A stretch of DNA of 64,000 nt from Alphaproteobacteria bacterium. GTDB taxonomy: Bacteria > Pseudomonadota > Alphaproteobacteria > JAJFFI01. The stretch lies in contig JASJBI010000057.1 in the NCBI GenBank assembly GCA_030066595.1, positions 40,021-104,020 of the forward strand, written 5' to 3'. The first letter of the stretch is position 1. Every line of letters begins with the position of its first letter. Positions 29,639 through 58,191 of the stretch are shown here, in pieces. The notes under the pieces were generated by a model. It saw nothing but the letters and a program-made list of their open reading frames with translations. It was not told the DNA's origin and made no database searches. The translations under genes were made by a program, and so were the position numbers.

Positions 29639-30826
29639 TCACGCGAACACTTCCTCCGGCCGTTTGGCGAAATCGGCGGACAGGGCGTCGACGACGATGC
29701 GCAGGATCTCGTTGATGACCTGATCCTTGTAGTCGTTGACGACGATGCGGATGCCCCACCGATCCGCCTCGGACAAGAGGAACGACTGCAACTGCCAGAT
29801 GCCATCGAAGTGCTCGAGATATCTCTCGGCGCGTCGCTGGTCGGCGTGCTTGCCGCGCCCCCGGATCCCCGCCTTGAGCCGCTCGGGATTAAGGACGGCC
29901 AGCATGATCGGGACGACGATGGCGCCGGACTCCACCGGAATCCGGTCGAGCAAAGTGTGCTGTACGTGAACCCCCTCCAGGAGCAGTGAGACCTGCTCCC
30001 TGAGGGCGCGTTTGATGACCGCTTCACAGGGGACGGAGAGCAGCTCCGCCTGGGCTCGGTATCCATCGAGGACCGTGGCATCCGTATCGTTGGCGCGCTC
30101 GCCGCGGCCGGGCAGGGCACGCCAAGCGTCGAAGGAGGAGGTGTGCAGCACCGGTGAAAGGCGCTGCGGAATCATCATGCGCATGACTTCGCGAAGGAGA
30201 TCTGTCGACTGCGTGCGCACGATCCCGAGCCGATGCGCCACTTCGGTGGCCACGACGCTCTTGCCGCTGCCAGGGGCCCCACCGATCAGCACCAGCAAGG
30301 GTCGACCCCCGTGGAAGTAGTCCGCCAGAACCAGATAGCGGCGGGCGGCGCCGGCGCCCAGGGCGCGACGGACATAGCGAAACGTCAGAACCCCGAGATG
30401 GCGGGCCGTAATCTCCGCAACCGCCTTCTTCATCAGATGGTCGAAAATCGCGGTGGTGACCGCCGTGGATCGCTCGTAGGACAGTCCGCTGGACTCGAGA
30501 AGACGGCGATGCTGTTCCCGCGAGAACGGTGTGGTTCGCCCCGCGATGTCACGCACCAGGACCGTGTGGGGCGTGGCGCCCAGCGCCTCGTACCGCTGCA
30601 CGACCGCGGTGCCATACTCTGCCGACAGATGGCGTACGACCGCCTCGTGCAAGTCCGGCGTGGTGATCTCCGGCGTCTCTGCCAACTCCTCGCGCAAGGT
30701 TGAGGCGAGGGCATAGGCCTCATCGAAAGACAGGCCGGCATCCTGCAAAGATCGGGTCAAGATTCCGCGCAGAAACGGAATCTTGGTGTGGTCCTCGCCA
30801 GGCTCAATGACCAGCGTTTTCGCCAA
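29639..30826 (-). CDS. 2-phosphoglycerate kinase-like P-loop kinase with an N-terminal ATP-cone-like domain
   Basis: N-terminus IPFLRGILTRSLQDAGLSFDEAYALASTLREEL resembles the ATP-cone region of archaeal-type 2-phosphoglycerate kinases. P-loop LIGGAPGSGKSVVATEVAHRLGI. Family assignment from memory. Confidence 0.6.
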   Translation of the reverse strand: MAKTLVIEPGEDHTKIPFLRGILTRSLQDAGLSFDEAYALASTLREELAETPEITTPDLHEAVVRHLSAEYGTAVVQRYEALGATPHTVLVRDIAGRTTPFSREQHRRLLESSGLSYERSTAVTTAIFDHLMKKAVAEITARHLGVLTFRYVRRALGAGAARRYLVLADYFHGGRPLLVLIGGAPGSGKSVVATEVAHRLGIVRTQSTDLLREVMRMMIPQRLSPVLHTSSFDAWRALPGRGERANDTDATVLDGYRAQAELLSVPCEAVIKRALREQVSLLLEGVHVQHTLLDRIPVESGAIVVPIMLAVLNPERLKAGIRGRGKHADQRRAERYLEHFDGIWQLQSFLLSEADRWGIRIVVNDYKDQVINEILRIVVDALSADFAKRPEEVFA

Positions 30827-31019: not shown

Positions 31020-31475
31020 TCAGTCCTCGTCGGTCGCCCAGGCGGCGGACTTGGCGACCTGATCCTCCAGCGCACCGCGGATCCAGGTCAGCTCGGAAAG
31101 GACATTTTTGACCACGTCATTGATGCTGACGAGGCCCACCAATGCTCCGTCCTCCAGCACCGGCAGATGCCGCAGGTGACCACTTAACATCTGGTTCATC
31201 AGCTCTTCCGTGTCGGTCTCTGGCGTACAGGTCACGACCGACCGGGTCATCAGATCCGCGACGGATAGATCGAGCGTCTGCGCGCCGCGATCCGCGATGC
31301 TGCGCACGATATCGCGCTCGGAGATGATGCCGGCGATGGCCCCCTCATCCGTATTGACCAAGACGGCGCCAATCTGCTCGTCCCGCAGGATCTCGGCGAC
31401 CTCGGTCACAGCGGTGGCCTCGCGCGTTGTGACGACCCGTTCGCCCTTCTCCTTCAGAATGTCCGCAACCTGCAT
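31020..31475 (-). CDS. CBS-pair domain protein
   Basis: Two CBS motifs (VADILKEKGERVVT...IGAVLV...GIISERDIV; ADLMTRSVVTC...HLPVLEDGALVGLVSINDVV). Confidence 0.8.
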   Translation of the reverse strand: MQVADILKEKGERVVTTREATAVTEVAEILRDEQIGAVLVNTDEGAIAGIISERDIVRSIADRGAQTLDLSVADLMTRSVVTCTPETDTEELMNQMLSGHLRHLPVLEDGALVGLVSINDVVKNVLSELTWIRGALEDQVAKSAAWATDED

Positions 31476-31631
31476 TTTATGTTTCTCCTTGCTGCGACCC
31501 GACCTGGACTCCCATTCCCTCAAGCTTAGCCTGCGCCAGGCATGTTAAGGAAGGCCGGCGCCCGGCCCACCAGGCTTCGCTGACCAGGCCACGTCAGACA
31601 GGCGACGGAGGCTGCGCGTGTGGCGGCAACG

Positions 31632-32141
31632 TCAACTCGTCATGACGCCTACACCGATGAGCACCGCAAACCCCGCGACCAGAGCGATCAAGGCCTTGTT
31701 CTTGGTGGCGAACGACTTGACGTCTCGATTGAGCCCTTCGATCTCCTGCTCCTGCTCGCGGACGACCCAGCTCGTCAGGTCGCCGCTGGAGATCATCGCA
31801 AGCAGTTTGTCACCGTCCATGATCGGCAGATGCCGCACGCGACGCTCGGAGACCTGACGCATCGCCTCTTCGACGGTCATCGACGGTGGGACGCTGTACG
31901 GGTTCTCGGTCATGACCTGCGCGACCTGTGTCGTCTGAGGATCCAACGAGTCGTTCACCACACGGAACAATACGTCGCGCTCCGTGAAGATCCCGGCCAC
32001 CTTGTCGTCGGCGCGCACCAAGAGCGCACCCACCTTTTGGTCGTGCATTTTCTGGACGGCCTCGGCGACGGACGCATCCGGTGCGATCGCATGCACCTCT
32101 GAACCCTTCGATTTTGCGATCTCACTCAGCTGACTTTGCAT
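31632..32141 (-). CDS. CBS-pair domain protein with a C-terminal transmembrane anchor
   Basis: Two CBS motifs and a terminal hydrophobic helix (ALIALVAGFAVLIGVGVM). Confidence 0.8.
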   Translation of the reverse strand: MQSQLSEIAKSKGSEVHAIAPDASVAEAVQKMHDQKVGALLVRADDKVAGIFTERDVLFRVVNDSLDPQTTQVAQVMTENPYSVPPSMTVEEAMRQVSERRVRHLPIMDGDKLLAMISSGDLTSWVVREQEQEIEGLNRDVKSFATKNKALIALVAGFAVLIGVGVMTS

Positions 32142-32308: not shown

Positions 32309-33385
32309 CTAAGACGTTCGGGCTGAACCGGCCGCGCGGGCAGCCCCTGCCATCCCCGGCGCGACAGCGCCGGTGTTGTCCAAGTGCGCCTTGAGAAGGT
32401 CATCCAGTTCGGGCCAGGATCTGTCATCCATAAGATTCAATGCCTTGAGCCCCGACAGCCGATCGATCAGCGCGACGCCGGCTTCCGTGCTGGTGGCCAT
32501 GCCGGCGACCAGGTCGGCCTTTCTGCCGAAGGCGTCGATGACGCCGAGCACCGAATAGGGATCGGACGCGCACAGCACCATGCAACGGACATGTGGGTCG
32601 ATCTGAGCCACCGCCACGGCACCATTGTAGGGCTCGAGTGGCGAGGCGCCCGCCTCCGCGACCAAGACGTCCGCAGACGCGCCAGCCATCATCGACATGA
32701 GCTGTTGTAGAGCGTCACGGTACTCGTCCTCCGGACACACGGTCGACGGCAAGCCCACGTCGACGAAATCGAAGATTTCCATGGCGCCCGCATCCAGCAT
32801 CCCCAGGATATCGCGATAGCGTCCGGCGCCGGTGAGCTTGGCGCCGATCACTGTGAGGCCCATCTCCGTGAGCCTGCGAATGATGATTTTTGCCGAGGTT
32901 GTCTTGCCGGCCGACATGGAGCTGCCAACCAGGAGTACGATCGGCAGCGTGAATTCGGCCGGGCCGCCCCGATGCGCATAGTCCCGCATGCGTGCGGGTT
33001 TGCCCTGGACCATGACATGTCCCTGATACTGCACCGGGATTGGCGGTGAGCAGTAAGGGGACTTCGATTCGACCTTTCCGAAGATGCCGGCCCCAGTCAG
33101 CGCCGTCATCCGTCCGTCCTCGCCGATATGCTTCCAGTCTCCGGTCAGCTCCAGGGTGGCAAACCGATTCCCGAAGGCGCCAACGATCAGGTCCCCTTCG
33201 GTCACCTCGATCATCCGGCCCGAGGTGAGCTCCAGCATGGCGCCGCGACTTGGCGGCTCGTTCACCAAGCCGACGACGTAATCGCCGGTTTGCCAGCTTC
33301 CACGGCCTTGCGGTTCGACCTCGAAGTCGATCTCGGAAAAGTCGGTAATGCGTGTCAACGAGGAAAAAAGGTAGTTGTGTCTCAT
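32309..33385 (-). CDS. P-loop NTPase-like protein (DUF1611-like or cyclic 2,3-diphosphoglycerate synthetase-like; uncertain)
   Basis: Walker A LLVGSSMSAGKTTSAKIIIRRL in the middle of a 358-aa protein. Its ATG overlaps the upstream M20 peptidase stop (ATGA). I cannot discriminate the family by eye. Confidence 0.5.
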   Translation of the reverse strand: MRHNYLFSSLTRITDFSEIDFEVEPQGRGSWQTGDYVVGLVNEPPSRGAMLELTSGRMIEVTEGDLIVGAFGNRFATLELTGDWKHIGEDGRMTALTGAGIFGKVESKSPYCSPPIPVQYQGHVMVQGKPARMRDYAHRGGPAEFTLPIVLLVGSSMSAGKTTSAKIIIRRLTEMGLTVIGAKLTGAGRYRDILGMLDAGAMEIFDFVDVGLPSTVCPEDEYRDALQQLMSMMAGASADVLVAEAGASPLEPYNGAVAVAQIDPHVRCMVLCASDPYSVLGVIDAFGRKADLVAGMATSTEAGVALIDRLSGLKALNLMDDRSWPELDDLLKAHLDNTGAVAPGMAGAARAAGSARTS

Positions 33386-36002: not shown

Positions 36003-36275
36003 CTGCGGTCCGACCGTAATCCCGCATTTGCCCAGGGATCCTGACCGAACAGCGACACGACGTCGTTGAGCTATGTCAAAACTGAGCGTTGCGTCGTCTA
36101 TGGGGTTGTTTGCTCCAAGGCCGCCGCCTGCGGTCCGGCATGATGCGGCGTGCTTGCAGCGCATGTTAACCCTAACTCCCCCGTCAAAACCGATACACCT
36201 CCACAGTTTCGAGCGCATTGCTTGCCTGCCAACGGCTTATCAGGCATGTTTGAAACCGGGGAGGACAGCACGAAT

Positions 36276-37061
36276 ATGGCCAAGGCTGCCAAGCCTTTGA
36301 CCGAGCTGGAGGGCACCACTGCGCTGCCGCGTGCGGTACCGCGCGGGGGGCCGGGTGTGGCGCCGTGCGGCGCCTGCGCGGTGCGGCCCTTGGCCATCTG
36401 CGCGGCTATGCCGCTCGAGCATCTCGCTCAGCTTGCGGCGATCGTCACAAGCGTCAGCCTCACCGCAGGCCAGCCGCTGTTCCTCGAAGGCGAGCCGGCG
36501 CGGCATCACTTCATCGTCACAGGAGGCGCCCTCAAGATCTATAAGCTGCTGTCCGACGGCCGGCGGCAGGTGACCGGCTTCGTGTTTCCCTCGGATTTCC
36601 TCGGCCTCGCCAACAAGGAGACCTATGCCTACAGCGCCGAGGCCATGACCCGGACCGAGCTGTGCCGCTTCCGCCGGGAAAAGCTCGAGGCGATGCTGGA
36701 TCGCTTCCCACAGCTTGAGAGACGCCTGCTGGCGGTGGCCAATGACGAGCTTGCAGCCGCCCAGGAGCGGATGCTGTTGTTGGGCCGCAAGACGGCCAAG
36801 GAGCGCATTGCCTCGTTCCTGACGACCCTGGGCAGGACCACGTCCCGTCGGGGAGAGAGCAAGCAGGTCGTCACCCTCCCCATGAGCCGGACGGACATCG
36901 GCGACTACCTGGGCCTCAGCACAGAGACCGTGAGCCGCACGTTCACCGAGCTAAAGCTGGCGGGCATCGTGCGGCTCGAGCCCAAGAGCCGCGTGCGTAT
37001 TCTGGATGACCGCAAGATCAACCTGCTGGCGGAATGCGAAGACGCGACACTGGGGCTTTGA
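36276..37061 (+). CDS. fnrL: FNR/FnrL-type oxygen-sensing transcriptional regulator (Crp/Fnr family with 4-Cys cluster)
   Basis: N-terminal CGACAVRPLAIC plus a central Cys (TELCRF) in the canonical FNR [4Fe-4S] ligand spacing. HTH DIGDYLGLSTETVSRTFTELK carries the E--SR recognition motif for TTGAT half-sites. Confidence 0.85.
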   Translation: MAKAAKPLTELEGTTALPRAVPRGGPGVAPCGACAVRPLAICAAMPLEHLAQLAAIVTSVSLTAGQPLFLEGEPARHHFIVTGGALKIYKLLSDGRRQVTGFVFPSDFLGLANKETYAYSAEAMTRTELCRFRREKLEAMLDRFPQLERRLLAVANDELAAAQERMLLLGRKTAKERIASFLTTLGRTTSRRGESKQVVTLPMSRTDIGDYLGLSTETVSRTFTELKLAGIVRLEPKSRVRILDDRKINLLAECEDATLGL

Positions 37062-37144: not shown

Positions 37145-39460
<2,316 letters not shown>

Positions 39461-39601
39461 ATCGCCTCCCCTCGTCGTCCCGCGCGGGCCACGCAATCAG
39501 GCCCCCACGCAGGACAAACCACGTCCCTCACCTGATCCGGCCATTTTGGCCGGTCCAGGCAACGCGATTTTTTCTCTTATCGCGCCCCGTCCGAGCCCGC
39601 A

Positions 39602-39615
39602 TTGAGCCAGCTCAA
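39602..39615. promoter_or_regulatory. FixK/FNR-type box TTGAGCCAGCTCAA
   Basis: Perfect TTGA-N6-TCAA palindrome, about 140 nt upstream of the ppk1 start at 39460. Confidence 0.55.
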
Positions 39616-39702: not shown

Positions 39703-41511
39703 TCATTCCGCCGCCTCCGGCACGCCGGCGGAGGGCGTCACCGGCCACTGGGTCTTGGCGATCTTGCGGCAGAGCCGGTAGATGCGGCTCAGATTCTCGA
39801 TCATCTCCATTTCCCGCGTGAAGGTGCGCAGCCGGTTCGGTTCCTGGGCCACCAGGCGGCTGACCTCGTGGCGAGCCGTTTCTTGGGCCAGCTCGGCCAT
39901 GTCCTTCTTCATGCCTTTGACCCGCAAGGCGGCCGCCGGATCCTCCTCTCGAACCGCCTGAACGGACGTGTGAAAGGCTTCCGTGACCTGGTCGTGATAG
40001 CGCTGGATCACGGCCCGCGTCTCGTCGCTCACGGCCACGTCCTCCTCGATTCGCCGGCGCCCGATGGTGACCAGGTTGGTCTCCATGATATCGCCGATCT
40101 GCTCGAGGTTGTTGGCCACCAGCAAGAGATCCATGATCTCCGCAGTTTCCTCCGGCGAGAGCTCCTCGCGGCTCACCTGACCGAGATAACGGACGATGTG
40201 CCCATGCAGGACGTCGATATCCGCGTCCATTGCGGCAAGCCTCTCCAGGTCCTCCTCGGAGCCCGATACCACGGCCGGCAAGCTGGCCTGCAGCATCTCC
40301 TCGGTCAGATCGCCCAGGCGCCCGATCTCGCGCCGGGCCCGGTCGAGCGCCAGCGCCGGCGTCGACAGCAGCTCCTTGTCGAGATAGCGGGCCTGGATGA
40401 CCGCCGGCTCGACCATCGGCCGGTCGGGCACGAGCCACTCGGCGAAACGCGCGACCAGGCCGGCAGCCGGCAGGAACGCGAGGGCGAAGAAAACGTTGAA
40501 GGTGGTGTGGGCGTTGGCGATCTGGCGCGGCGTTTCGGCGGCCAGCTTGTCCATGCCGGTGACGCCTTGCGCGACCGGTGAGATCGAGCGCACGAATTCG
40601 GCGAGCATGGGAATGAACCACACGGCGATCGCGACGCCCGCGACGTTGAAGGTGACGTGCGCCACCGACACGCGAACGGCCTCCCGGGGCTTGCCGATGG
40701 CGGCGAGCCCCGCCGTGACGCAGGTTCCGATGTTGGCCCCCATGATCAGGGCGATGCCGCCTTCGAGGCTGATCAGACCCTGGGACGCCATCGCAATGAC
40801 AACACCCGTGGTCGCCGAGGACGACTGGATCAGGCCGGTGAAGGCCGCGGAGATCAGAATTCCCACGGCCGGAGTCGACACCTCGCGCATCAGCTCGATG
40901 AAGGGCTCGTAGGTGCGCAGCGGCTTCATGCCCGAGCTCATGATCCCCATGCCGAAGAAGATCAGCCCCAGCCCCATGACCAGCGCGCCATATTGCTTTA
41001 TCCGCTCGGACTTGCCGGTGAAGATCAGGACGAAGCCGACGGCCACCAGAAGAAGCGCGTAATGGGTGACCTTGAAGGCGACGATCTGGGCGGTAATCGT
41101 CGTGCCGATATTGGCGCCGAAGATGACGCCGACGGCCTGCGACAAGGACATCAGCCCGGCGGTCACGAATCCCACCAACATCACGGTGGTCACCGAGGAG
41201 GACTGAATGACCGCGGTGACGAAGGTCCCCGTGAGTGCGCCCATGAACCGATTTGTCGTGAGCTTGCCCAAAATGGTCTTCATCCGGTTCCCGGCGACCT
41301 TCTTGAGGGCCTCGGCCATCTGCTCCATGCCGAACAGGAACACGGCAAGCCCGCCGAAGAGCTGCATGCCCATCGTTCCCCACGCGATCGGCTTGCCTTC
41401 CGCCGCGGCGAGAGCGGGCGTGGACGCGATCCAGGCCGCCGCCGCCAAAATGAGAAAGATCCCGGTGTACAGGATCCGGTTCTTGGCGCTGGCGTGATGA
41501 ATGCTTCCCAT
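39703..41511 (-). CDS. Na/Pi cotransporter family protein (NptA-like) with C-terminal PhoU-like domain
   Basis: Duplicated Na/Pi cotransporter repeats (GANIGTTITAQIVAF...; GANIGTCVTAGLAAI) followed by a helical PhoU-like tail. ATG at 41511 with SD GGGGG upstream. Confidence 0.8.
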   Translation of the reverse strand: MGSIHHASAKNRILYTGIFLILAAAAWIASTPALAAAEGKPIAWGTMGMQLFGGLAVFLFGMEQMAEALKKVAGNRMKTILGKLTTNRFMGALTGTFVTAVIQSSSVTTVMLVGFVTAGLMSLSQAVGVIFGANIGTTITAQIVAFKVTHYALLLVAVGFVLIFTGKSERIKQYGALVMGLGLIFFGMGIMSSGMKPLRTYEPFIELMREVSTPAVGILISAAFTGLIQSSSATTGVVIAMASQGLISLEGGIALIMGANIGTCVTAGLAAIGKPREAVRVSVAHVTFNVAGVAIAVWFIPMLAEFVRSISPVAQGVTGMDKLAAETPRQIANAHTTFNVFFALAFLPAAGLVARFAEWLVPDRPMVEPAVIQARYLDKELLSTPALALDRARREIGRLGDLTEEMLQASLPAVVSGSEEDLERLAAMDADIDVLHGHIVRYLGQVSREELSPEETAEIMDLLLVANNLEQIGDIMETNLVTIGRRRIEEDVAVSDETRAVIQRYHDQVTEAFHTSVQAVREEDPAAALRVKGMKKDMAELAQETARHEVSRLVAQEPNRLRTFTREMEMIENLSRIYRLCRKIAKTQWPVTPSAGVPEAAE

Positions 41512-41606
41512 TGCGTTACCCCCTGCGGTTCTCTTATCGGCAGCCGGTTTTGTGCCCAGCAGGCAAAGCCCCATCCGACAGCCCCGCCCCATATTTCTGC
41601 TGTCTG

Positions 41607-42111
41607 TCAACGATCATTTCTCGGCGCCTTGACGATTGTGACCGGGATCGGCGAGAGCTGGACCACCCGCTCGGCCTTGGAGCCCAACAGCAGATGCGGC
41701 AGGCCGGTGCGCCCACGGCTTCCCATCACGATCATGCGGGCGCCGGTGTTGGTGGCCGCTTCCAGAATGCGCGTATCCGGAATGCCCTTGACCAGGGTCG
41801 TCTCGGCGGTTGCCAGCGCCTCGAGCTGCGGATGTTCCTCCCGCGCCGTGGCGACGAACTCGTCCATCATTTCCCGGGCGACGTCTTCCATGGGCTGCAA
41901 GTGATCTTTCTGGTTCTTGCGATAGGAGCCCGGCGCCTCGGCCGGATCGTGCACCACATGCAGAATGCGAACCGGTGCACCGACAGTGGCTGCATACTCG
42001 CAGGCCCATCGCAAGGCCGCCTCGGAATCGGCCGTGAAGTCGACGGCCACCAGGATCGGGCCGTCGTCGCTCGGATGCTCGGTGGATTTGGCCGTCTGGG
42101 TTTCGCTCACC
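41607..42111 (-). CDS. Universal stress protein (UspA family)
   Basis: ILVAVDFTADSEAALRWACEYAATVGAPVRILHVVHDP...VMGSRGRTGLPHLLLGSKAERVVQLSPIPVTIVK. GTG start at 42111 after SD GGGGGGAGAG. The track merges it with a long antisense ORF (41607-43760). Confidence 0.8.
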
Positions 42112-42194
42112 TCTCCCCCCCATATCTCCGCCCGCCGACGCAGCGGTCCGGCGCCGACTTGGTCGCAACCTAGCGAATGAGGTTGGCTCGGAAA

Positions 42195-42208
42195 TTGAGG
42201 TGGATCAA
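42195..42208. promoter_or_regulatory. FixK/FNR-type box TTGAGGTGGATCAA
   Basis: Perfect TTGA-N6-TCAA palindrome, about 85 nt upstream of the usp start at 42111 (minus strand). Confidence 0.55.
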
Positions 42209-42234
42209 GATCTAGTTGGCTGGCGCCACAACAA

Positions 42235-42248
42235 TTGAGCCACATCAA
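42235..42248. promoter_or_regulatory. FixK/FNR-type box TTGAGCCACATCAA
   Basis: Second perfect box in the same divergent intergenic region, 40 bp from the first and about 210 nt upstream of the CNNM gene start at 42456. Confidence 0.5.
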
Positions 42249-42455
42249 TTTCTGCAGTGCACAATTCCCCCTATATCTTGCGCTGGCAAAAAGCGCGGAC
42301 GAAACGGTACACTCCGGGCGGCGAGAGACCGGCCTGAGCGGCTGCCTTCCGCCATCTGGCCGATAGCGGCAGGCGCTCGCGCGTGGCGGTCTGGGACGCC
42401 TTGGTCCAGCCGGCCGGTGTCGCGAGCGATCGTCCGCCGGGGGAGGGAGAGGTGC

Positions 42456-44135
42456 ATGGACGGGACCGTCCTGGACATCGCGCGGATGTGGGAGGCGACC
42501 CAGGCCTTCTTCGCCTTCGACACGGCGCGCCTGCTCGCGCCCGGTATCATCGCCGCGCTCGTCCTGCAGGTCTTCCTGTTCGTCTGTTCCGCTTTCTTTT
42601 CCGGCTCTGAAACCGCGCTGTTCTCGCTGTCGCGGCTCGATCTGCAAAAGCTGCGACGCGAGCGGCACCCGCGCTCGGAAGTGCTGCATGCGCTCTTGGA
42701 CCAGCCGCGGCGCCTGATCATTTCGATCCTCTGCGGCAATGAACTCGTCAATATCGCGGCGACTGCAAATCTGGCCGGCATCCTGGTCTATCTGTACGGC
42801 GAGGATCGGGCCGGCCTGATCAACGTGCTGGTGATGTTTCCCCTGCTGCTGCTCTTCGGTGAAGTGACGCCGAAGACCATCGCGGTCAGCAATCCGGTCC
42901 GCATCAGCGCCGGCCTGGTGGCCTCTCCCTTGAGCGTCTGGGCCAAGCTGATCACGCCGCTGCGGCGGGTGGTCCGGATCGCGGCAGATCGGGTGACCAC
43001 TTGGATCGTTGGCGCGGAACGGGCGCGGGAGAACATCCTCCATGTGGACGAACTGCGCACCTTGCTGGAGGACGTGGAGCATGAAGGCGTCCTGGACGCG
43101 ACCGAACGGGTCCTGATCGACAATCTGCTGGAGGCGAGCGAGACGGAGATCGTCGAGATCATGACGCCCCGCACGCGCATCGACTTCCTCCGGGACGACA
43201 TGGCGGTGCCGGAGATCGTCAAGCATTTTCGGGCCTTCTGCCATCCCCGCGTTCCGGTCTGCCACGAGCATCACGACAACCTTGTCGGCTTCATTCATGC
43301 CGAGGATGTGGTCCGGCTCGTGCTCGACGGCGTCGACCTCTCGACGCTTGCGCTCGACGACATCATGCATCCGCCGGTCGTCGCGCCGCCGACCAAGCAT
43401 GTCGACGAGATGTTTGATTTCTTTGAGGCCAACAATGCGCGCGCGGCCGTGGTGCTGAACGAGTTCGGCGGCGTCGAGGGTCTGATCACCATGCGGGACG
43501 TGGTCAACTTCATCTTCGGCGAGATCTCGGAAGGCCTCGGGGGCCAGCACCTCTACCAAGAGCGAGACGAGAACGTCTATGTGGTGCCCGGCCAGATGAA
43601 GCTGACGGACTTCAACGACCTCACGAATTTCGGCATCGAGGACCCGCGCATGACGACGATCGGCGGCGTGGTCTTTCGCTATCTCGACCGTTTGCCCAAG
43701 GTCGGTGATCGCGTTGCCATGGACGGCTTCGTCGCCACCGTGCTGGAAATGGACGGGCATCGGCTGGCCAAGGTGCGCATCGCAAAGGGAACGATCGAGG
43801 AAGAAGAGCAGCGGGAAGCGAGCCGGCAGGCCGACGAAGCCGCCGCGGAGGCGAATTCGAAGCCGGCGCCGAAAGCCGGGAAGTCCGAGAAGAAGATCGC
43901 CGATGCGTCATCGAAAGGCGGTCCATCGAAAGAAAAAGATAAGGCAGCAAGAGAAAAGGCACCGAAAGCCAAGCCGGCGCCGGCTGCCACGACTTCCCGG
44001 GACGACGAGGACGCGCCCTTGGCGTCCGCCAAAGTCGTCGAGCTTGCGGCGCTCATGGAAGACGCCGCCAAGCCGGCGGCGGCGGAAAAGCGCGACGCGC
44101 CCGAGCGCGGCAAGAAAGGCAAGGAGAGGAGCTAG
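42456..44135 (+). CDS. CNNM/CorC/TlyC-family transporter (DUF21 + CBS pair + CorC_HlyC) with a Lys/Ala/Glu-rich C-terminal tail
   Basis: DUF21 membrane domain (FFSGSETALFSLSRLDLQKL), CBS pair, CorC_HlyC region, then about 100 aa of KA/E-rich low complexity. Start ATG at 42456 (MDGTVLD). Confidence 0.8.
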   Translation: MDGTVLDIARMWEATQAFFAFDTARLLAPGIIAALVLQVFLFVCSAFFSGSETALFSLSRLDLQKLRRERHPRSEVLHALLDQPRRLIISILCGNELVNIAATANLAGILVYLYGEDRAGLINVLVMFPLLLLFGEVTPKTIAVSNPVRISAGLVASPLSVWAKLITPLRRVVRIAADRVTTWIVGAERARENILHVDELRTLLEDVEHEGVLDATERVLIDNLLEASETEIVEIMTPRTRIDFLRDDMAVPEIVKHFRAFCHPRVPVCHEHHDNLVGFIHAEDVVRLVLDGVDLSTLALDDIMHPPVVAPPTKHVDEMFDFFEANNARAAVVLNEFGGVEGLITMRDVVNFIFGEISEGLGGQHLYQERDENVYVVPGQMKLTDFNDLTNFGIEDPRMTTIGGVVFRYLDRLPKVGDRVAMDGFVATVLEMDGHRLAKVRIAKGTIEEEEQREASRQADEAAAEANSKPAPKAGKSEKKIADASSKGGPSKEKDKAAREKAPKAKPAPAATTSRDDEDAPLASAKVVELAALMEDAAKPAAAEKRDAPERGKKGKERS

Positions 44136-44138
44136 CCG

Positions 44139-45434
44139 ATGATTACCGAAATGCTCCTGGCGATCCTGGCCATGCTGCTGTTCTTGGCGCTCAAGGGCTT
44201 CTTCTCGGGCTCGGAAATCGCTCTGGTCAACGCCGACAAGATCAAGCTCCGCCACCGGGCCAAACAGGGTCACCGCGGCGCCGAGTTGTCGCTGAAGCTC
44301 TTGCAGGCGCCGGACGTGCTGCTGAGTACGACCCTGGTGGGCACCAATATCTGCACGGTGGTGCTCACGACCATCGGCGCCTTGCTGATGATCCGGCTGT
44401 TCGGCGAGCTTGGCGAGGTCTACGCCTTCCTGATCCTGACGCCGTTGCTGCTGGTGCTCGGCGAGATCGTGCCCAAGAGTGTCTACCAGCAGAAGTCCGA
44501 TCGGCTGACGCCGATCATCATCTATCCGCTGCGTTGGGCCTCGTATCTGTTCTATCCGGTGGTCTTCGTGTTCTCCCGCGTGGCGCGGCTCACCGCGCGG
44601 CTGGCCGGCGCCGGTAAGCGGGAGCAGCCGTTCTTCATCACGCGGGAGCAGCTCCGCATGCTGCTCGACGTGGCCGAGCACGGACCGGCGATGGACGCCT
44701 TCGGCAAGGGCCGCATCCGCCGGGTCATCCGCTTTGCCGAGACGACCGTGGCCGAGGCCATGATCCCGATCGCCGAGGCAACGGCGATCAGCCGCAGCAG
44801 CAGCACGGCGACGGCGGTCGATCTGGTCCGCAAGCACGGCTATAACCGCCTGCCGGTGTTCGAGAGCAGCACCAGCAATATCGTCGGCATCGTCACCTTG
44901 ACCACCTGGGACCTGATGGACCCGGAACTCAGGGAACGGCCGCTCGAGAGCCTGATCAAGCCCGCCCTCTACGTCTCGCCCCTGCAGACGATCGACCAGC
45001 TGTTGCCGGTCCTGCGACGGCGGCCGGACCATATGGCCATCGTCGTCGACGAATTCGGCACCGCGATCGGCATGATCACCATGGAGGACATCGTCGAAGA
45101 GGTCGTTGGCGAGATCGATGTGGGCTACGACTTCGAGGAGTACCTGCCGAAAAGGAAGCGGGTCTACGAGAAGCTTGCCGAAGAGGTCTATCTGATGGAC
45201 TCGCGGCTCTCGGTTTCGGAAGCCAACGAGGTGCTTGCCATCAACCTGCCGACCACCGAGTTCCATACCGTGGGCGGTCTGGTTCTGGCGCGGCTCCGCC
45301 ATATTCCCGAGATCGGCGAATACATCGGCGAAGAGGGCTATCGCTTTACGGTGGTCGAGGCCAGCGACCGGGCGATCCTGAGGCTGCGGGTCGAACCCGA
45401 ACACCTTGTCGGCCAGGCCGACGAGCCGGTCTAG
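44139..45434 (+). CDS. CNNM/CorC-family Mg2+/Co2+ transporter (DUF21-CBS-CorC_HlyC)
   Basis: FFSGSEIALVNADKIKL..., CBS pair, and a C-terminal transporter-associated domain. Confidence 0.85.
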   Translation: MITEMLLAILAMLLFLALKGFFSGSEIALVNADKIKLRHRAKQGHRGAELSLKLLQAPDVLLSTTLVGTNICTVVLTTIGALLMIRLFGELGEVYAFLILTPLLLVLGEIVPKSVYQQKSDRLTPIIIYPLRWASYLFYPVVFVFSRVARLTARLAGAGKREQPFFITREQLRMLLDVAEHGPAMDAFGKGRIRRVIRFAETTVAEAMIPIAEATAISRSSSTATAVDLVRKHGYNRLPVFESSTSNIVGIVTLTTWDLMDPELRERPLESLIKPALYVSPLQTIDQLLPVLRRRPDHMAIVVDEFGTAIGMITMEDIVEEVVGEIDVGYDFEEYLPKRKRVYEKLAEEVYLMDSRLSVSEANEVLAINLPTTEFHTVGGLVLARLRHIPEIGEYIGEEGYRFTVVEASDRAILRLRVEPEHLVGQADEPV

Positions 45435-45475
45435 CGTAACCGGACCTCCGAGGCGAGTGAGCCGTCGGAAAGCAT

Positions 45476-46786
45476 TCAGGACCGTTGTGGATTTGGCAGC
45501 CGCGCATCTCGTCCAATGCGGCCTGGTGACTCTGTCTCAGGATCCTCGCTGGCGTCGGGTTGCCGGCGCCTGATCGTCACCCGGTCAATCCGCCGCGGCG
45601 ATGCCTCGGAAATCTTCACCTCCAGGCCGTCAATGGTGAAGACGGAGTCTTTCTTGGGAATCGATTCGGTGCGGGTCAGAATCCAGAGGCTCACCGTATC
45701 GGTGGGTTTACCTGGAAGGTCCAGGTCAAAGAAATCTTCCACCACGCGTAGCTCTGTCGATCCATCGACGGCTAGCTCGTGCTCGGAAACCCTGGTCGCC
45801 ATGGTCTGTGCAACGTCACTCTCGTCGAAGATTTCACCCACCAGCTCTTCGAGGAGGTCTTCAAGGGTCACGATGCCCCGGATCATGCCGTGTTCATCCA
45901 CGACGATGGCAAGGTGGCGCTTGTTTCGCAGCAGTTTCGAGAATAATTCGTCGATGGCCTGATATTGGGGGACAAACAGGGGGTCGTGGGCGTACTCGTC
46001 GAGCCGTGCATTGGTCTGGCCGTCGGCCACCGCGTTGAGCAGATCGCGCAGATACAATATCTTGTAAAGATTGTTCCGATTTTCATCGTGAAGTGGAATG
46101 CGGGTGTATGAGCCTACTGCCACCAGAGGCAACGCCTCGGCGACCGTTTTGCTTCCGTCGAGCGAGAAGACTTCGTCGTGCGGCGTCATCACGTCCCGGA
46201 CCTTGAGGTCATGAAACTCGAACACGCGCTCGATGATTTCGCGCTCGCCGTGGTCGATCGTGCCCTCCCGCTCGCCGTGCCCCAGCATGCTGATCAGCTC
46301 TGACTCGGTAATCGTAGGGTCGCTCGTTGCGCCGGTTTGTTTGTGTACCCAAGTGGTGAACTTGCCGAACAGCCAGACGAGCGGATAAATCAAGCGCATG
46401 AAGGCGAGCAATGGTGGCGCGATGGTGAGCGAAATTCGCTCCGAGTACCGAGTCGCGAGACTCTTCGGCGTTATTTCACCGAAGACCAGAATCATGATGG
46501 TCAATACGCCGACCGCGACGCCGGGGCCCGCGCTGCCGAACAATCTCGTTGCGAGAACCGTCGCCATGACCGATGCAGCGATGTTCACGAGATTGTTTCC
46601 GATCAATATCGTCGTCAGCATCCGAGAGGGGTCTCGCTTGAGCTGATGCAGGGCGCGCGCCCCCCCGCGCCCCTCCTTGACGAGGGCCTCGACCCGACCG
46701 ATGGACAGGTCCACCAACGCCGTCTCCGACCCGGAGAACACGCCGGATAGGATCAACAGCACCAGCAAGATGAAGAGCTCTGTCAT
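45476..46786 (-). CDS. CNNM/CorC-family Mg2+/Co2+ transporter (DUF21-CBS-CorC_HlyC)
   Basis: MTELFILLVLLILSGVFSGSETALVDLSIGRVEAL..., CBS pair, CorC_HlyC. This is the third paralog in a row. Confidence 0.85.
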   Translation of the reverse strand: MTELFILLVLLILSGVFSGSETALVDLSIGRVEALVKEGRGGARALHQLKRDPSRMLTTILIGNNLVNIAASVMATVLATRLFGSAGPGVAVGVLTIMILVFGEITPKSLATRYSERISLTIAPPLLAFMRLIYPLVWLFGKFTTWVHKQTGATSDPTITESELISMLGHGEREGTIDHGEREIIERVFEFHDLKVRDVMTPHDEVFSLDGSKTVAEALPLVAVGSYTRIPLHDENRNNLYKILYLRDLLNAVADGQTNARLDEYAHDPLFVPQYQAIDELFSKLLRNKRHLAIVVDEHGMIRGIVTLEDLLEELVGEIFDESDVAQTMATRVSEHELAVDGSTELRVVEDFFDLDLPGKPTDTVSLWILTRTESIPKKDSVFTIDGLEVKISEASPRRIDRVTIRRRQPDASEDPETESPGRIGRDARLPNPQRS

Positions 46787-47182
46787 GGATTCAACCGACC
46801 GCTCCCGCGATCACGGGCCGGCCGCCTGACCCGGCCCCACTTATGGTGTCAAGCGCCAGTTTAGACTCCTAGCGGCTTGGCGAAAACGTCGATCTGTCTG
46901 GAGCCCATCCGGAGCCCAGGACAGACCAACGCGGTGGTGCCGGATGGCCTCCGGCCTTTCCCTGCCGAGCGGCCGCCACCATAGCCTGGGCGGCTTTTTG
47001 ATCGGTCTCGCAAAGGCGATCCCTCCGGAGGGCTCGGTCATGCAGTTCGAGGGCATCTCGTTCACGGTCGAGGCGGCCACCGATCAGGCAGTCCAGGAGG
47101 TCCGGGTGAAGCGGTGAATCCACGGCCGTGCCGGGGGTCTATCGCTGACACGCCCATCGGGCGAGGCCAAGTCCGGGCATTC

Positions 47183-47196
47183 TTGAGCTACGTCAA
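47183..47196. promoter_or_regulatory. FixK/FNR-type box TTGAGCTACGTCAA
   Basis: Perfect TTGA-N6-TCAA palindrome inside the 790-bp intergenic region. It is about 385 nt upstream of the ppk2 start (47579) and about 400 nt upstream of the CNNM gene start (46786, minus strand). Confidence 0.5.
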
Positions 47197-47578
47197 TTTC
47201 GAGATGGCATGCTATGGTTAGCCTAGTCGTGCTGAATCGGCGCGCGTCGGGACAGGATCCGGCGCTGGCTCAGACCGCGGGGTCCAAATTCACCGGCTCC
47301 CTTTTTGGTTTGCGGCCAGGACTGCCTGAGCGGCAGTGCGAAGAGACCGGTCAGCAGGGCTTCGCGCTGCTGTCGGCGGGGCAGTCGGCTCGTCAGCGGC
47401 AACGCGTAAGGGGAGATCGCTGGGAGGCGTGAAGATTCTTGTTTGCAGAAAGTTAATGCGACTCAAGGTATTGCGGTGGGGCCTGGCGGGCCATGGTTAA
47501 CCGGCCCGGGTGCCGCAACCGCATGCAAGAGCGCCTCCATCGCCGCGCCAGGCGGCCAACCAGGTGGTGGTAGAAACG

Positions 47579-49144
47579 ATGTTTGAGACCGCAGAAATCG
47601 GACGGAAGGTCGCCAAGGCGACCTACAACAAGCAAGTCCCGCTATTGCGGCTGGAGCTGCTCGAGGTTCAACAGGAACTGCGCCAGGCGGGGTTCCCCGC
47701 CATCGTGCTGTTCGGCGGCGTCGACGCGGCCGGCAAGAGCGAGACCGTCAATCTGCTCAACGAATGGATGGACCCGCGCTGGCTCACCACGTCCGCCTAC
47801 GTAGATCCCTCCGACGAGGAGAAGGAGCGGCCCGAGTTCTGGCGCTATTGGCGTGACCTGCCGCCGAAGGGACAGATCGGTCTGTTCCAGAGTGCCTGGT
47901 ATTCCAGGGCCATTCGGGCGCGGGTCTACGGGGGCCTTTCGGATGCCGGGTTCGACAAGGCGCTCGAGCGCATCGAGACCTTCGAGAAGGAGCTCGCCGA
48001 CGACGGCACACTGATCCTCAAGTTCTGGCTGCACCTCAGCCGGGAAGGCCAGAAAAAGCGCTTCAAAGCCTTGGAATCCGACCCGCTGACAAGCTGGCGG
48101 GTGGCCAAGACCGACTGGGAGAACCTCAAGCACTATGACGACTTCGTGGCCGCGTCCGAACGTGCGATCGCCCGCACCAGCACGGGCGAGGCGCCCTGGC
48201 ACATCGTCGAGGGCTACGACCTGCGCTACTGCGGTCTGAGCGTGGCAGAGACGCTCAGGGATGCGCTGCAGAAGCATTTGCGCGAAGCGGAAATCAAGCA
48301 AGAGCTCGTTGCTCAGATGCAGATCGACGAAAGCCTCGCCCAGGACGAGCCCGCAGCGGCGCCGAAGAAGGGTAACGGGGCCGATGAAGACGCGGGCGCA
48401 GGTGTCGTCCTCTCGCCGCGCGTGACCATCTTGAGCCGGCTGGACATGAACCAGACCCTGTCCAAGAGCGATTACCGCACCCAGTTGGCGAAGTATCAGG
48501 CCAAGCTGCACAAGCTGAACCGCGAGGCGATCAAGCGCAAACTTTCGTCGATTTTCGTGTTCGAGGGCTGGGACGCCGCCGGCAAGGGCGGCGCCATCCG
48601 CCGGATGACCCAGGCGCTCGATGCGCGGAGCTATCGGGTCATTCCGATCGCGGCGCCGACCGACGAAGAGAACCAGCACCACTATCTATGGCGGTTCTGG
48701 CGCCATATTTCGCGCGCCGGCCGGGTCACCATGTTCGACCGCAGCTGGTATGGCCGTGTGCTCGTGGAACGGGTCGAGGGCTTTGCCAGCGAGGCCGAAT
48801 GGCGGCGCGCCTACGGCGAGATCAACGATTTCGAGGAACAGCTGGTCAATCACGGCATCCTCCTGCTCAAGTTCTGGGTGCACGTCACACCGGAGGAGCA
48901 GTTGGTCCGGTTCAAGTCCCGTGAGGAGGTGCCGTACAAGCGCTGGAAGCTCACCGATGAGGACTGGCGCAACCGCGAGAAATGGGGCGACTACGAGGAG
49001 GCGGTCAACGACATGATCGAGCGGACCAGCACCGCCTCGGCGCCCTGGACCCTGGTTGAGGGCAACGACAAGCGGTTCTCCCGCGTGAAGGTGATCCAGA
49101 CCGTCTGTGACAGTTTGGAGGAGCGGCTCAAGGCTGAGGCCTAG
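47579..49144 (+). CDS. ppk2: Two-domain polyphosphate kinase 2 (PPK2 tandem domains; polyphosphate:AMP phosphotransferase type)
   Basis: Two PPK2 P-loop domains (FGGVDAAGKSET...; FEGWDAAGKGGAI...) each followed by conserved W/R lid regions. Confidence 0.85.
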   Translation: MFETAEIGRKVAKATYNKQVPLLRLELLEVQQELRQAGFPAIVLFGGVDAAGKSETVNLLNEWMDPRWLTTSAYVDPSDEEKERPEFWRYWRDLPPKGQIGLFQSAWYSRAIRARVYGGLSDAGFDKALERIETFEKELADDGTLILKFWLHLSREGQKKRFKALESDPLTSWRVAKTDWENLKHYDDFVAASERAIARTSTGEAPWHIVEGYDLRYCGLSVAETLRDALQKHLREAEIKQELVAQMQIDESLAQDEPAAAPKKGNGADEDAGAGVVLSPRVTILSRLDMNQTLSKSDYRTQLAKYQAKLHKLNREAIKRKLSSIFVFEGWDAAGKGGAIRRMTQALDARSYRVIPIAAPTDEENQHHYLWRFWRHISRAGRVTMFDRSWYGRVLVERVEGFASEAEWRRAYGEINDFEEQLVNHGILLLKFWVHVTPEEQLVRFKSREEVPYKRWKLTDEDWRNREKWGDYEEAVNDMIERTSTASAPWTLVEGNDKRFSRVKVIQTVCDSLEERLKAEA

Positions 49145-49176: not shown

Positions 49177-49734
49177 TCAGGCCGAGAAGGCGCGGACCCG
49201 CCAGAGCCCGCCGGGACGGTCGGGCGGCTCGAAGCGAACCGGCAGCCCATGGGGCACGCTGCCGCCCCGGCCGATGTCGATCCCGGCATGCGCGCAGATC
49301 ATTCGAAAGACGCCTGAATGGGCCACGATCAGCGGTGGCGAGGAGCCGACGATCGCGTTGAGGCTGTCGGCCACGCGCGCCAGAAACGCCTGTTGTGTTT
49401 CGCCGCCCCGAGGCGACGTTCCGAACGGCCGCTCGCCCTTGGGGCGTCCCTGATAGATGCCCCAGTTCCTGGCCAGCAGACCAAAGAGGGGCCGCGTCGC
49501 CACGCGCGTCGCGCGGGAAACGATCGAGGCAGTTTCCAGCGCCCGGTCCAGGGGGCTCGTGTAGATCGCCGAAATGGCAGCCCCGGAGAGAAGCCCGGCC
49601 GCGGCCTCGGCCTGGGTCCGTCCCGCTCGACCGAGAGGCGTATCGAGCTGCCCTTGCAGAATCCCTGCCTGGTTCGCCTCGGTCTCGCCGTGGCGCAGGA
49701 AGTAGAAGGGCTGCTCTGGCAGCGGTGACAGCAT
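49177..49734 (-). CDS. Histidine phosphatase family protein (paralog of 29003-29554)
   Basis: FYFLRHGETEANQAGILQGQLDTPLGRAGRTQAEAAAGLL...IYTSPLDRALETASIVSR is about 60% identical to the other copy by eye. The track's 49818 start is an N-terminal extension. Confidence 0.75.
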   Translation of the reverse strand: MLSPLPEQPFYFLRHGETEANQAGILQGQLDTPLGRAGRTQAEAAAGLLSGAAISAIYTSPLDRALETASIVSRATRVATRPLFGLLARNWGIYQGRPKGERPFGTSPRGGETQQAFLARVADSLNAIVGSSPPLIVAHSGVFRMICAHAGIDIGRGGSVPHGLPVRFEPPDRPGGLWRVRAFSA

Positions 49735-50225
49735 GCTCGGCCCCGGACGTAGACAATCGCGGGCTGGTTCCGGTGAAGATCCGCAGGAGGACTCGGTTGG
49801 GCCCAGCCGCTTTTGCAACTTTCCAGGGCTTGGCTAAATATTTCGTTAACTTTTGAGGGAAATTTGTCCCAGCCCAGCGGGGCAGGGGGCCGCTCATTCG
49901 ACGGACCCCGGCAGAGGCGCGCTGGCGCGCCGGGCCGAGATCGGCGGAATCGGTTTATTGCGCTGTATCAATTTACTAAGCTTGCCGTCTGGTTATGTTC
50001 GGACACGTGTCCTGAAATCCGTGGCCGGCGGGCCGGCTGAATGGCGCTTGCGGGTTTTCTTGGGTTCGGGGCCGAGCGACGAGTGTCGGCGCGATGTGGA
50101 GAGGGGACGTGATTGCAAGTGGCAAGATGGTGGTCCGGGACAGAGCCCGTGTGCTCAACGGGAGCCCGCGTAGTGCGGGTCCGGCCTGCCGGCGACGCTG
50201 TCCGGCTCCGACGGTGAGGTGAACC

Positions 50226-58177: not shown

Positions 58178-58191
58178 TTGAGCTATCTCAA
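58178..58191. promoter_or_regulatory. FixK/FNR-type box TTGAGCTATCTCAA
   Basis: Perfect TTGA-N6-TCAA palindrome, about 205 nt upstream of the DUF47-pit operon start at 58396. Confidence 0.55.

Follow-up and report, generated by a model that had tools for sequence, protein, structure and literature searches.

Can a CNNM/CorB transporter be built from two unlike protomers, and if so, what would tie such a transporter to phosphate metabolism? Both questions are raised by a 64,000-nucleotide stretch of DNA from an Alphaproteobacteria bacterium (GenBank assembly GCA_030066595.1, contig JASJBI010000057.1, positions 40,021 to 104,020; hereafter the window), in which two adjacent CNNM genes, CNNM-A and CNNM-B, lie beside a third, CNNM-C, and a universal stress protein gene, usp2, with phosphate and polyphosphate (polyP) genes on either side. 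Members of the CNNM/CorB family have been conserved all the way from bacteria to humans, in whom they have links to disease, and their transport cycle is debated. To our knowledge, every CNNM/CorB structure so far is a symmetric homodimer. We find that CNNM-A and CNNM-B are an old, obligatorily adjacent and translationally coupled pair with different ion-site residues. The pair appears to exemplify a widespread architecture, a canonical module joined to a degenerate one as neighbouring genes or as a fusion, that implies asymmetric heterodimeric CorB transporters.

Three CNNM genes beside a usp gene

An initial annotation, made from the window alone, had described three tandem CNNM paralogs next to a usp gene, and the open reading frame (ORF) listing together with Pfam confirms that three full-length DUF21-CBS-CorC_HlyC genes are present (Table 1). 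PF01595, the DUF21/CNNM transmembrane domain, scores 142, 160 and 194 bits in CNNM-A, -B and -C, respectively (cutoff 28.4), and PF00571 (CBS) and PF03471 (CorC_HlyC) exceed their cutoffs in all three. The architecture is that of TpCorC (PDB 7cfg/7cfh) and MtCorB (PDB 7m1t/7m1u), the latter being the best PDB match of both CNNM-A (E 1e-34) and CNNM-B (E 2e-44). At curated cutoffs none of the three proteins passes the NCBIfam equivalogs CorC PRK15094, PaeA, GldE or PRK11573; the top NCBIfam matches are to GldE (173-218 bits, cutoff 376) and PaeA (135-159 bits, cutoff 500).

The genes are not tandem, since CNNM-C is on the minus strand and convergent with the other two. Nor is the number of genes within 4.3 kb unusual as had been thought, relatives in the clade carrying two or four in a row. 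Pairwise identities of only 25%, 29% and 31% show that the divergence of the three genes is old, and recent duplication, which the initial annotation had named as a finding that would refute it, does not describe them. A protein at NCBI, from an Alphaproteobacteria metagenome-assembled genome (MAG), matches CNNM-A with 100% identity. The closest genome loci come from Kiloniellales/Kiloniellaceae, Inquilinaceae and Rhodospirillaceae MAGs, together with some Gammaproteobacteria MAGs.

CNNM-A and CNNM-B differ in their ion-site residues

The Mg2+ ligands of TpCorC are S43, S47, N90, G129 and E130, with N94 responsible for Na+ sensitivity (PMC7875539), and those of MtCorB are S21, S25, S71, G110 and E111, with P114 and K115 in the pi-helix (PMC8242095). 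CorB/CorC proteins export Mg2+ in a Na+-dependent manner (PMC7875539, PMC8242095). We read the ion-site signatures of the window proteins and their relatives by mapping them onto these positions. CNNM-A has S45, S49, N95, N99, G135-E136 and P139-K140, and the resulting signature S,S,(E),G,N,N,G,E,P,K is found in CNNM-A, in all A orthologs, in A2 (the first gene of a second pair, see below) and in CNNM-C. Compared with TpCorC and MtCorB, CNNM-A and CNNM-C keep every Mg2+ ligand as well as the pi-helix GE..PK. The pi-helix motif G-E-x-x-P-K of the third transmembrane segment is present in all three proteins, as GEVTPK (A), GEIVPK (B) and GEITPK (C), and all three also keep the Thr/Arg residues of the ATP site.

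In contrast, CNNM-B does not carry the full set of Mg2+ ligands. K19 occupies the position of TpCorC S43/MtCorB S21, T69 that of N90 and T73 that of N94, while S23, E26, G108-E109 and P112-K113 are retained. A lysine at the S43 position is not a ligand; the threonine at the N90 position is chemically near the archaeal Ser71. The K,S,T,T signature of B is found in 14/14 loci; the Lys is shared by 119/120 B orthologs and the Thr/Thr by 120/120. The second B-type gene, B2, has Glu, Thr and Val at the corresponding positions and has lost the pi-helix Pro. Compared with the homodimeric TpCorC and MtCorB, the canonical protomer here is always encoded together with a Lys/Thr/Thr (B) or Glu/Thr/Val (B2) partner.

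CNNM-A departs from TpCorC and MtCorB outside the ion site as well, in a disordered tail of 115 aa (described below), an extra N-terminal helix and a non-acidic linker between CBS2 and CorC. The helix (aa 1-20, 42456-42515) is typical of the CNNM-A clade and is modelled by AlphaFold 2 (AF2) with a predicted local distance difference test (pLDDT) score >90. The linker (aa 344-356) reads TMRDVVNFIF, with the clade form TM(R/K)DVxxFIF, and replaces the family-wide acidic T-x-E-D-x-x-E-E in CNNM-A and not in CNNM-B.

The two genes form an old, translationally coupled pair

CNNM-B lies directly after CNNM-A in 16/16 related genome loci that include downstream DNA. At the junction (44133-44141) the stop codon TAG is followed by CCG and then by the start codon ATG; the same stop-to-start gap of 3 nt occurs in 10/14 related loci, and the last codons of A are purine-rich. 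The Shine-Dalgarno sequence of CNNM-B falls within these codons (Table 1). CNNM-A and CNNM-B moreover share one reading frame, split only by TAG-CCG.

A second pair, A2-B2, comes right after the first in four genome loci (L002, L005, L006 and L009) and in the metagenome locus L043, all of which thus carry A-B-A2-B2, four CNNM genes on one strand. A and A2 are 37% identical, as are B and B2, whereas A and B share only 25%, from which it follows that the pair was duplicated as a unit. The view of three redundant paralogs therefore does not hold for the window: A and B are an old adjacent pair with differing ion sites, and C is a separate insertion.

B-like genes and natural fusions

We then searched exhaustively with CNNM-B using HMMER and clustered the relatives at 50%. 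The nearest relatives of B are mostly non-canonical, with E/K/Q/T at the first Ser and T/V/I at the Asn positions. Metagenome contigs scanned with the B-type alignment yielded 80 loci, and pairing was counted for the B-like genes whose contig extends at least 1350 bp upstream. A CNNM gene lies directly upstream on the same strand in every one of them (61/61), with a median of 32 bp between the domain ends. This upstream partner has Ser at the first ligand position in 53/57 readable cases and is fully canonical in 35/57. Across B-like modules the residues at the equivalent sites range widely (K, E, Q, T, S, R, L, V and M). One pair type deviates in both partners, with S(T/S)EG/A-I-N..GEPM upstream and TSEGVHGEPK downstream (L041, L047, L059, L063, L064, L068, L073, L075, L078 and L084).

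Two CNNM modules are also found within single polypeptides. Such natural double-CNNM fusions, 878-957 aa in length, make up at least 120 clusters from Poribacteria, Aminicenantes and Acidobacteria MAGs. One of them, P0288 (941 aa), represents a cluster of 15 members from JGI, ENA and NCBI, some of them on contigs of ~7 Mb; P0270 and P0272 are further examples. Of 111 aligned fusions, at least 109 have an N-terminal half with canonical residues at each of the 10 sites. Over the same alignment the C-terminal half varies at S21, S25, N71, N75 and G110 and keeps E28, E111, P114 and K115. The fusions therefore resemble the window pair in placing a canonical module first and a degenerate one second, and differ from it in being one polypeptide with an extra hydrophobic segment in the linker (in P0288, AF2 helix 476-494). 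This additional helix can be understood from the topology, which needs the chain to be returned across the membrane. The fusions are uncharacterised and only ~28-29% identical to CNNM-B. The AF2 model of P0288 has a mean pLDDT of 78.7 and a predicted template modelling score (pTM) of 0.60. Literature searches on heteromeric bacterial CorB/CNNM proteins and on Rv1841c/Rv1842c turned up nothing relevant.

The pair lies in a polyphosphate and phosphate island

To the right of the CNNM genes lie a two-domain PPK2 (the polyP:AMP phosphotransferase, PAP), a histidine phosphatase, phoR, pstSCAB and DUF47-Pit, and to the left a Na/Pi cotransporter gene and ppk1 (Pi, inorganic phosphate; Table 1). The order His-phosphatase/ATP-cone kinase/CBS-pair/ppk1/NaPi/usp, followed by the divergent CNNM-A, CNNM-B, (A2, B2), PAP and DUF47-Pit, recurs in L004, L006, L007, L009, L011 and L018, and partly in other loci including those of Gammaproteobacteria. 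DUF47-Pit comes after the CNNM genes in 8 related loci. The gene usp2 has the G-x2-G-x9-G-S motif of UspFG-type proteins and stands at the head of a usp-Na/Pi cotransporter unit, its adjacency to the cotransporter gene being kept in 10 loci.

Lys-type pairs have phosphate or polyP genes no more than ~4 kb away in 16/25 loci, as compared with 3/63 for pairs of the Glu, Gln and Thr types (Fisher p = 9e-9), a comparison whose flanks were unequal, 10 kb trimmed to 4 kb by eye on one side and 4 kb on the other. In the metagenome set alone the counts are 3/7 for the Lys type and 3/60 for the others (p = 0.011). The association with phosphate is thus specific to the Lys-type pair rather than a feature of paired CNNMs generally.

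The initial annotation had also suggested that clustering with polyP genes reflects counter-ion management. The physical link is kept across Alpha- and Gammaproteobacteria, which supports the suggestion in part; the handling of Mg2+ itself remains a reasonable inference. In the textbook model of polyP-accumulating organisms (PAOs), which uses PAP together with adenylate kinase, anaerobic use of polyP releases Pi and counter-ions, the Pi leaving with its counter-ions and generating proton-motive force via Pit (PMC5216660). As in the PAO systems of Accumulibacter and Acinetobacter johnsonii, with PAP plus adenylate kinase and metal-phosphate efflux by Pit, the window clusters ppk1, PAP, Pit and Pst. 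Unlike the PAOs, the window organism is a Kiloniellales-like marine alphaproteobacterium with dedicated CNNM pairs.

TTGA-N6-TCAA boxes, promoters and regulators

Two perfect FixK boxes had been annotated in the divergent region between usp2 and CNNM-A. Two FNR/FixK-type sites are indeed located there, and they match the core TTGA-N6-TCAA fully, but it is only to this core that they are perfect; both have the form TTGAG-N4-ATCAA, with one mismatch each to TTGAT-N4-ATCAA. The exact sequence TTGAT-N4-ATCAA has no match in the 64-kb window. The core is found 9 times, against 0.30 expected, and 0/100 shuffles reached 9. All nine boxes are intergenic; six are 77-113 bp upstream of the nearest start and the rest ~160-400 bp (Table 1). 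Their half-sites lean to TTGAGC..GCTCAA rather than to TTGAT.

In 12 related loci, too, CNNM-A is preceded by a box. The two-box layout is also seen in L004, where a box lies at the equivalent place upstream of PPK2 as well. Across ten aligned upstream regions the invariant elements are the TTGA..TCAA box, a TA 24-25 bp downstream of it and the start codon, while the rest of the CNNM-A leader varies in sequence and length. The predicted geometry of the CNNM-A promoter is that of a class II FNR/FixK promoter, with the -10-like TA 33 bp from the box centre. A sigma-70 scan of 41500-47600 gave no promoter-like sites, and terminator-like sites in that region were not above shuffles. A riboswitch or leader RNA in the ~170-nt 5' region of CNNM-A was considered and judged unlikely, as the leader is unconserved across the ten loci and Rfam gave no credible matches (0 at gathering thresholds over the whole window; when 42050-42520 was scanned by E-value, only a spurious miRNA match).

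The island has genes for two Crp/Fnr regulators. The FnrL-like protein has a Cys cluster C-x2-C-x7-C (CGACAVRPLAIC), a central Cys (ELCRF) and an ETVSR recognition helix, and its top NCBIfam match is FnrL at 183 bits, under the equivalog cutoff. The FixK-like protein is without an N-terminal Cys cluster, has a Cys inside its recognition helix (ESVCR) and is likewise under the equivalog cutoff. The pairing of its gene (crp1) with usp1 is kept in L004, L005 and L009. Genes of the usp type are classic FNR/Anr/FixK targets.

The window boxes share with FNR/FixK/Anr class II promoters (TTGAT-N4-ATCAA near -41.5) the TTGA-N6-TCAA core and a spacing of ~32-33 bp to a -10-like element. They also share usp targets and nearby regulators with an E--SR helix, one of which has a Cys cluster. 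Unlike those promoters, their half-sites are mostly TTGAG and their targets are in polyP, phosphate and Mg2+ transport rather than respiratory. The site type and a predicted nine-site regulon are well supported, and low O2 probably induces the island through the FnrL-like regulator, the FixK-like one or both. In the window, FNR-type boxes are found on the polyP genes themselves; a partial account of the predicted Accumulibacter FNR regulon names respiration, uspA and pta genes and, within that part, no polyP genes. A literature search on FNR control of polyP genes turned up nothing relevant.

The CNNM-A tail

The initial annotation had described a Lys/Ala/Glu-rich tail of roughly 100 aa on the first paralog. 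The tail is real and comprises 115 aa (A 28, K 18, E 16, S 9, P 9, D 8). With 25 K+R against 24 D+E its net charge is +1, and 21% of its residues are acidic. The charges are arranged in blocks: aa 445-467 have a net charge of -6, the K/A/P-rich aa 468-511 of +8, aa 512-523 of -3 and the basic C-terminal aa 541-559 of +3, with a hydrophobic motif, SAKVVELAAL, at aa 524-533. An AF2 model from a 91-sequence alignment shows a folded core and a helix in the acidic block (447-466), whereas aa 469-559 have pLDDT values of 31-37, which indicates that the tail is disordered. In this model the tail does not dock in cis onto CNNM-A, and this possibility was dropped.

Tails are the rule among the 120 best homologs; their median length is 92 aa, and short ones of 14-24 aa number only about a dozen, so the tail is far from absent in orthologs. 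An annotation or frameshift artefact was also rejected, given the tailed orthologs, an in-frame GC content at third codon positions (GC3) of 0.75 and a protein identical to an NCBI entry. Most of the ortholog tails, among those listed, are net acidic (~-3 to -19), and few are near neutral or positive. K/A-rich tails are confined to this MAG and a few relatives, two other such orthologs being P0004 and P0016.

These properties do not bear out the proposal of a histone-H1-like or polyanion-binding tail. The likeness to the Lys-Ala-Pro tails of histone-H1-like proteins, AlgP and HupB is limited to a KAPKAKPAPAA-like stretch within aa 468-511. Unlike those tails, that of CNNM-A is not net basic, and its K/A patch is not conserved. 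No tandem repeat was found in the DNA of the tail region (43700-44200), and repeats of the KPAA/PAKKA type are missing from the tail.

Two short elements are conserved among the tails. The C-terminal (K/D)E(R/K)(G/S) overlaps the Shine-Dalgarno sequence of CNNM-B, and an explanation at the nucleotide level is preferred to a terminal (D/E)ER(G/S) protein motif. The second, [S/A]-A-E-V-V-x-L-x3-K, lies 35-36 aa before the C-terminus in Kiloniellales/Inquilinaceae-like orthologs, and an AEVVxL-type motif is missing from gammaproteobacterial CNNM-A orthologs. The synonymous sites of this motif vary, which points to selection at the protein level and led us to reject an RNA element. The motif suggests a protein contact rather than polyP binding. 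The CNNM-A tail is a disordered, fast-evolving and lineage-variable extension with a clade-specific short linear motif.

CNNM-C and a B2 remnant

CNNM-C differs in composition from its surroundings (GC 0.57-0.58 versus ~0.64; GC3 0.74 versus 0.81-0.89), and in the synteny comparison it has no ortholog in related islands. It is 27-31% identical to all other CNNM types; the identity to A2 is only 29-31%, and we rejected the idea that CNNM-C is the A2 ortholog. Within the 720-bp gap between CNNM-C and PAP we found the remnant of a B2-type CNNM pseudogene, with 53% identity to the B2 C-termini of L005 and L009 (E ~1e-14). Its position is held by intact A2-B2 pairs in L002, L005, L006 and L009. CNNM-C is probably a later, independent insertion of a canonical CorB, and the simplest history consistent with these sequences would be that the incoming gene, in the opposite orientation, replaced an ancestral A2-B2 pair.

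Proposed mechanism and alternative explanations

The genes are strictly adjacent, their translation is coupled, they were duplicated en bloc, and the fusions keep a single order; together these four features form a classic signature of an obligate heteromer with one decayed site. Heterodimeric ATP-binding cassette (ABC) exporters carry one degenerate nucleotide-binding site and provide a conceptual analogy, not a homology. They have in common with the CNNM pair that one of two equivalent sites is decayed and that the genes are adjacent or fused, and they differ from it in fold and energy coupling.

We propose that CNNM-A and CNNM-B would join into an asymmetric heterodimer of the CorB type, in which a single ion site works and CNNM-B may act as a structural or regulatory protomer. 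The heterodimer would export Mg2+, probably against Na+ as in TpCorC. Expression would start from the predicted class II FNR-type promoter divergent from usp2, with probable induction at low O2, and the last codons of the CNNM-A tail would double as the ribosome-binding site of CNNM-B. Mg2+ would be freed when the neighbouring PAP mobilises polyP, and Pi would exit via DUF47-Pit or the Na/Pi cotransporter. The A-B transporter would then dispose of, or balance, the polyP-derived Mg2+ for as long as the FNR-type regulon is active. For this mechanism as a whole, an asymmetric A:B CorB exporter in an FNR-box-controlled polyP island, the balance of the evidence tips slightly in favour. A broader proposition is that a large undescribed prokaryotic class of CorB proteins consists of obligate asymmetric or fused pseudo-heterodimers, and that the Lys-type version is FNR-switched and ties Mg2+ extrusion to anaerobic polyP use; this we regard as evenly poised.

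Several points weigh against the proposed mechanism. The characterised CorB/CorC proteins are homodimers (PMC7875539, PMC8242095), an assembly that in this family runs through TM2/TM3 and the CBS pairs. Contact between A and B is suggested by gene pairing and by the fusions; the latter prove functional linkage, yet they might dimerise N:N and C:C, and the pTM of the P0288 model is low. CNNM-B keeps Glu109, Pro112 and Lys113 as well as the ATP-site residues and could be an active transporter for another substrate, in a family of which the polyamine exporter PaeA is also a member. Metal-phosphate already leaves by Pit-type efflux, so that a separate Mg2+ exporter is not strictly required. The same box precedes ppk1 (synthesis) and PAP (use), hence the direction of regulation is not fixed and the regulon may govern turnover both ways. 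Neither Crp/Fnr regulator reaches the NCBIfam equivalog cutoff, and the unequal flanks of the synteny comparison belong here too.

One alternative is that A and B are independent homodimeric transporters, A for Mg2+ and B for another cation or solute, which are co-transcribed for a shared physiological need. All solved CorB/CorC proteins are homodimeric, the family has non-Mg2+ exporters such as PaeA, and B retains both the pi-helix GE..PK and the ATP-site residues. Furthermore, Lys19 is so nearly invariant in the Lys-type clade (119/120) that it could mean a specific new site rather than decay. Independent homodimers would, however, leave unaccounted for the fact that B-like genes always have an upstream CNNM partner (61/61 in metagenomes, 16/16 in genome loci) and that A and B were duplicated together. 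Coupling across 3 nt with a shared Shine-Dalgarno sequence implies matched stoichiometry, in the fusions the degenerate module always follows the canonical one, and the wide variation at the B-like sites resembles relaxed constraint and not one new specificity. We consider this alternative a minority prospect, though one to be taken seriously; were the heterodimer idea to fail, the locus would be an ordinary CorB paralog set in a phosphate island. The reading of the initial annotation, in which there are three redundant Mg2+-efflux paralogs and the first carries an H1-like tail that binds polyP or nucleic acid, appears highly improbable. It can draw on the 44-aa K/A/P-rich patch with its net charge of +8, on the position of the CNNM genes among polyP genes and on the K/A-rich tails of P0004 and P0016. 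Against these stand the near-neutral charge of the whole tail, its acidic fraction, the acidity of most listed ortholog tails, the lack of repeats, the predicted disorder and the fact that the conserved elements are only the short hydrophobic motif and the Shine-Dalgarno sequence of B, and redundancy is at odds with identities of 25-31% and differing ion sites.

A further alternative concerns the regulation. The boxes might be bound by a Crp/Fnr regulator that senses redox, nitric oxide, a nucleotide or phosphate status, in which case the regulon would answer to stress or phosphate instead of hypoxia. The FixK-like regulator, with its unusual ESVCR helix and no Cys cluster, would fit such a role, as would the sub-cutoff scores of both regulators, the TTGAGC..GCTCAA-like rather than TTGAT half-sites and the lack of polyP genes among those named in the partial account of the Accumulibacter FNR regulon. 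In contrast, the second regulator has the FNR/FnrL-type Cys arrangement, an E--SR helix and FnrL as its top match, usp genes are typical targets of FNR, Anr and FixK, and the predicted class II spacing is conserved. A regulon that does not respond to O2 is unlikely in our view.

If the asymmetric heterodimer is correct, nature would already supply, in pairs or fusions with one intact and one degenerate site, a means of learning if a single site is enough, in what way the two protomers influence each other and which functions the CBS and CorC domains control. The Lys-type pair, together with ppk1, PAP, Pit and Na/Pi under FNR-type boxes, would offer a genetic handle on Mg2+ as the counter-ion in the build-up and use of polyP. 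It would also follow that PAO-like, O2-switched polyP metabolism extends to marine Kiloniellales-type bacteria.

Features of the window and neighbouring genes

Table 1. Coordinates of the genes, boxes and other elements discussed, given as positions within the 64-kb window
Feature	Position	Strand	Evidence or remarks
FixK-like Crp/Fnr regulator	27364-28155	-	adjoins usp1 (28152-28772); box 28862-28875
Box	28862-28875		precedes usp1/His-phosphatase; 77-113 bp group
His_Phos_1 gene	~29030-29554	+	
ATP-cone + 2-phosphoglycerate-kinase-like P-loop protein	29639-30826	-	PRK12337 257 bits, under cutoff; box 30903
Box	30903		precedes ATP-cone P-loop kinase; 77-113 bp group
Stand-alone CBS-pair protein	31020-31523	-	
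Stand-alone CBS-pair protein	31632-32141	-	box 32222
Box	32222		precedes CBS-pair gene; 77-113 bp group
358-aa ORF	32309-33385	-	coding-like GC3
Box	36066-36079		precedes FnrL-like regulator; 77-113 bp group
FnrL-like Crp/Fnr regulator	36150-37061	+	Pfam cNMP_binding + HTH_Crp_2; box 36066-36079 upstream
ppk1	37145-39496	-	translation; 62-75% identity to orthologs in related loci; own box 39602-39615
Box	39602-39615		precedes ppk1; 77-113 bp group
Na/Pi cotransporter with PhoU domains	39703-41610	-	Pfam, NCBIfam; downstream of usp2
usp2, universal stress protein	41607-42110	-	Pfam PF00582 108.5 bits, E 5e-31; ATP-binding motif GSRGRTGLPHLLLGS in translation
-10-like TAGGTT, usp2 side	42173-42168	-	
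Box 1 TTGAGGTGGATCAA	42195-42208		centre 91.5 bp upstream of usp2 start; 77-113 bp group
Box 2 TTGAGCCACATCAA	42235-42248		centre 214.5 bp upstream of CNNM-A ATG
Predicted -10 TATATC of CNNM-A promoter	42272-42277	+	33 bp from box 2 centre
CNNM-A, 559 aa	42456-44135	+	Pfam; canonical Mg2+ site; extra N-terminal helix; deviant CBS2-CorC linker
CNNM-A tail, aa 445-559	43788-44132	+	follows CorC_HlyC domain; charge blocks
Shine-Dalgarno AAGGAGAGGAG of CNNM-B	44121-44131	+	within last CNNM-A codons (K-E-R-S)
CNNM-B, 431 aa	44139-45434	+	Pfam; fold motifs canonical, ion site altered
CNNM-C, 436 aa	45476-46786	-	Pfam; canonical Mg2+ site
B2-type CNNM pseudogene remnant, last 54 aa (CorC_HlyC end)	46953-47117	+	tblastn with L005/L009 B2 proteins
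Box TTGAGCTACGTCAA	47183-47196		between B2 remnant/CNNM-C and PAP gene; 320-400 bp to start
Two-domain PPK2 (PAP, polyP:AMP phosphotransferase)	47510-49144	+	TIGR03708 701.6 bits (cutoff 547.65); Pfam PPK2 x2
His_Phos_1 gene	49177-49818	-	
Box	58178-58191		precedes DUF47-Pit; 163 bp
DUF47/PhoU_div	58348-59076	+	after box 58178-58191
PHO4/Pit phosphate transporter	59113-60378	+	after DUF47

The true start of PAP is possibly the ATG at 47579. The gene for the ATP-cone kinase adjoins a CBS-pair gene and ppk1 also in L004, L006, L007, L009, L011 and L018. By analogy with the transmembrane-less CorC of Salmonella, the two stand-alone CBS-pair proteins, both of them in the predicted regulon, are possible soluble partners or sensors of CBS transporters. 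The 358-aa ORF lies between a CBS-pair gene and an M20 peptidase gene and has no Pfam or NCBIfam match. One of the island's two His_Phos_1 genes has the 28862 box region in common with usp1, and His_Phos_1 orthologs are kept in several related loci.

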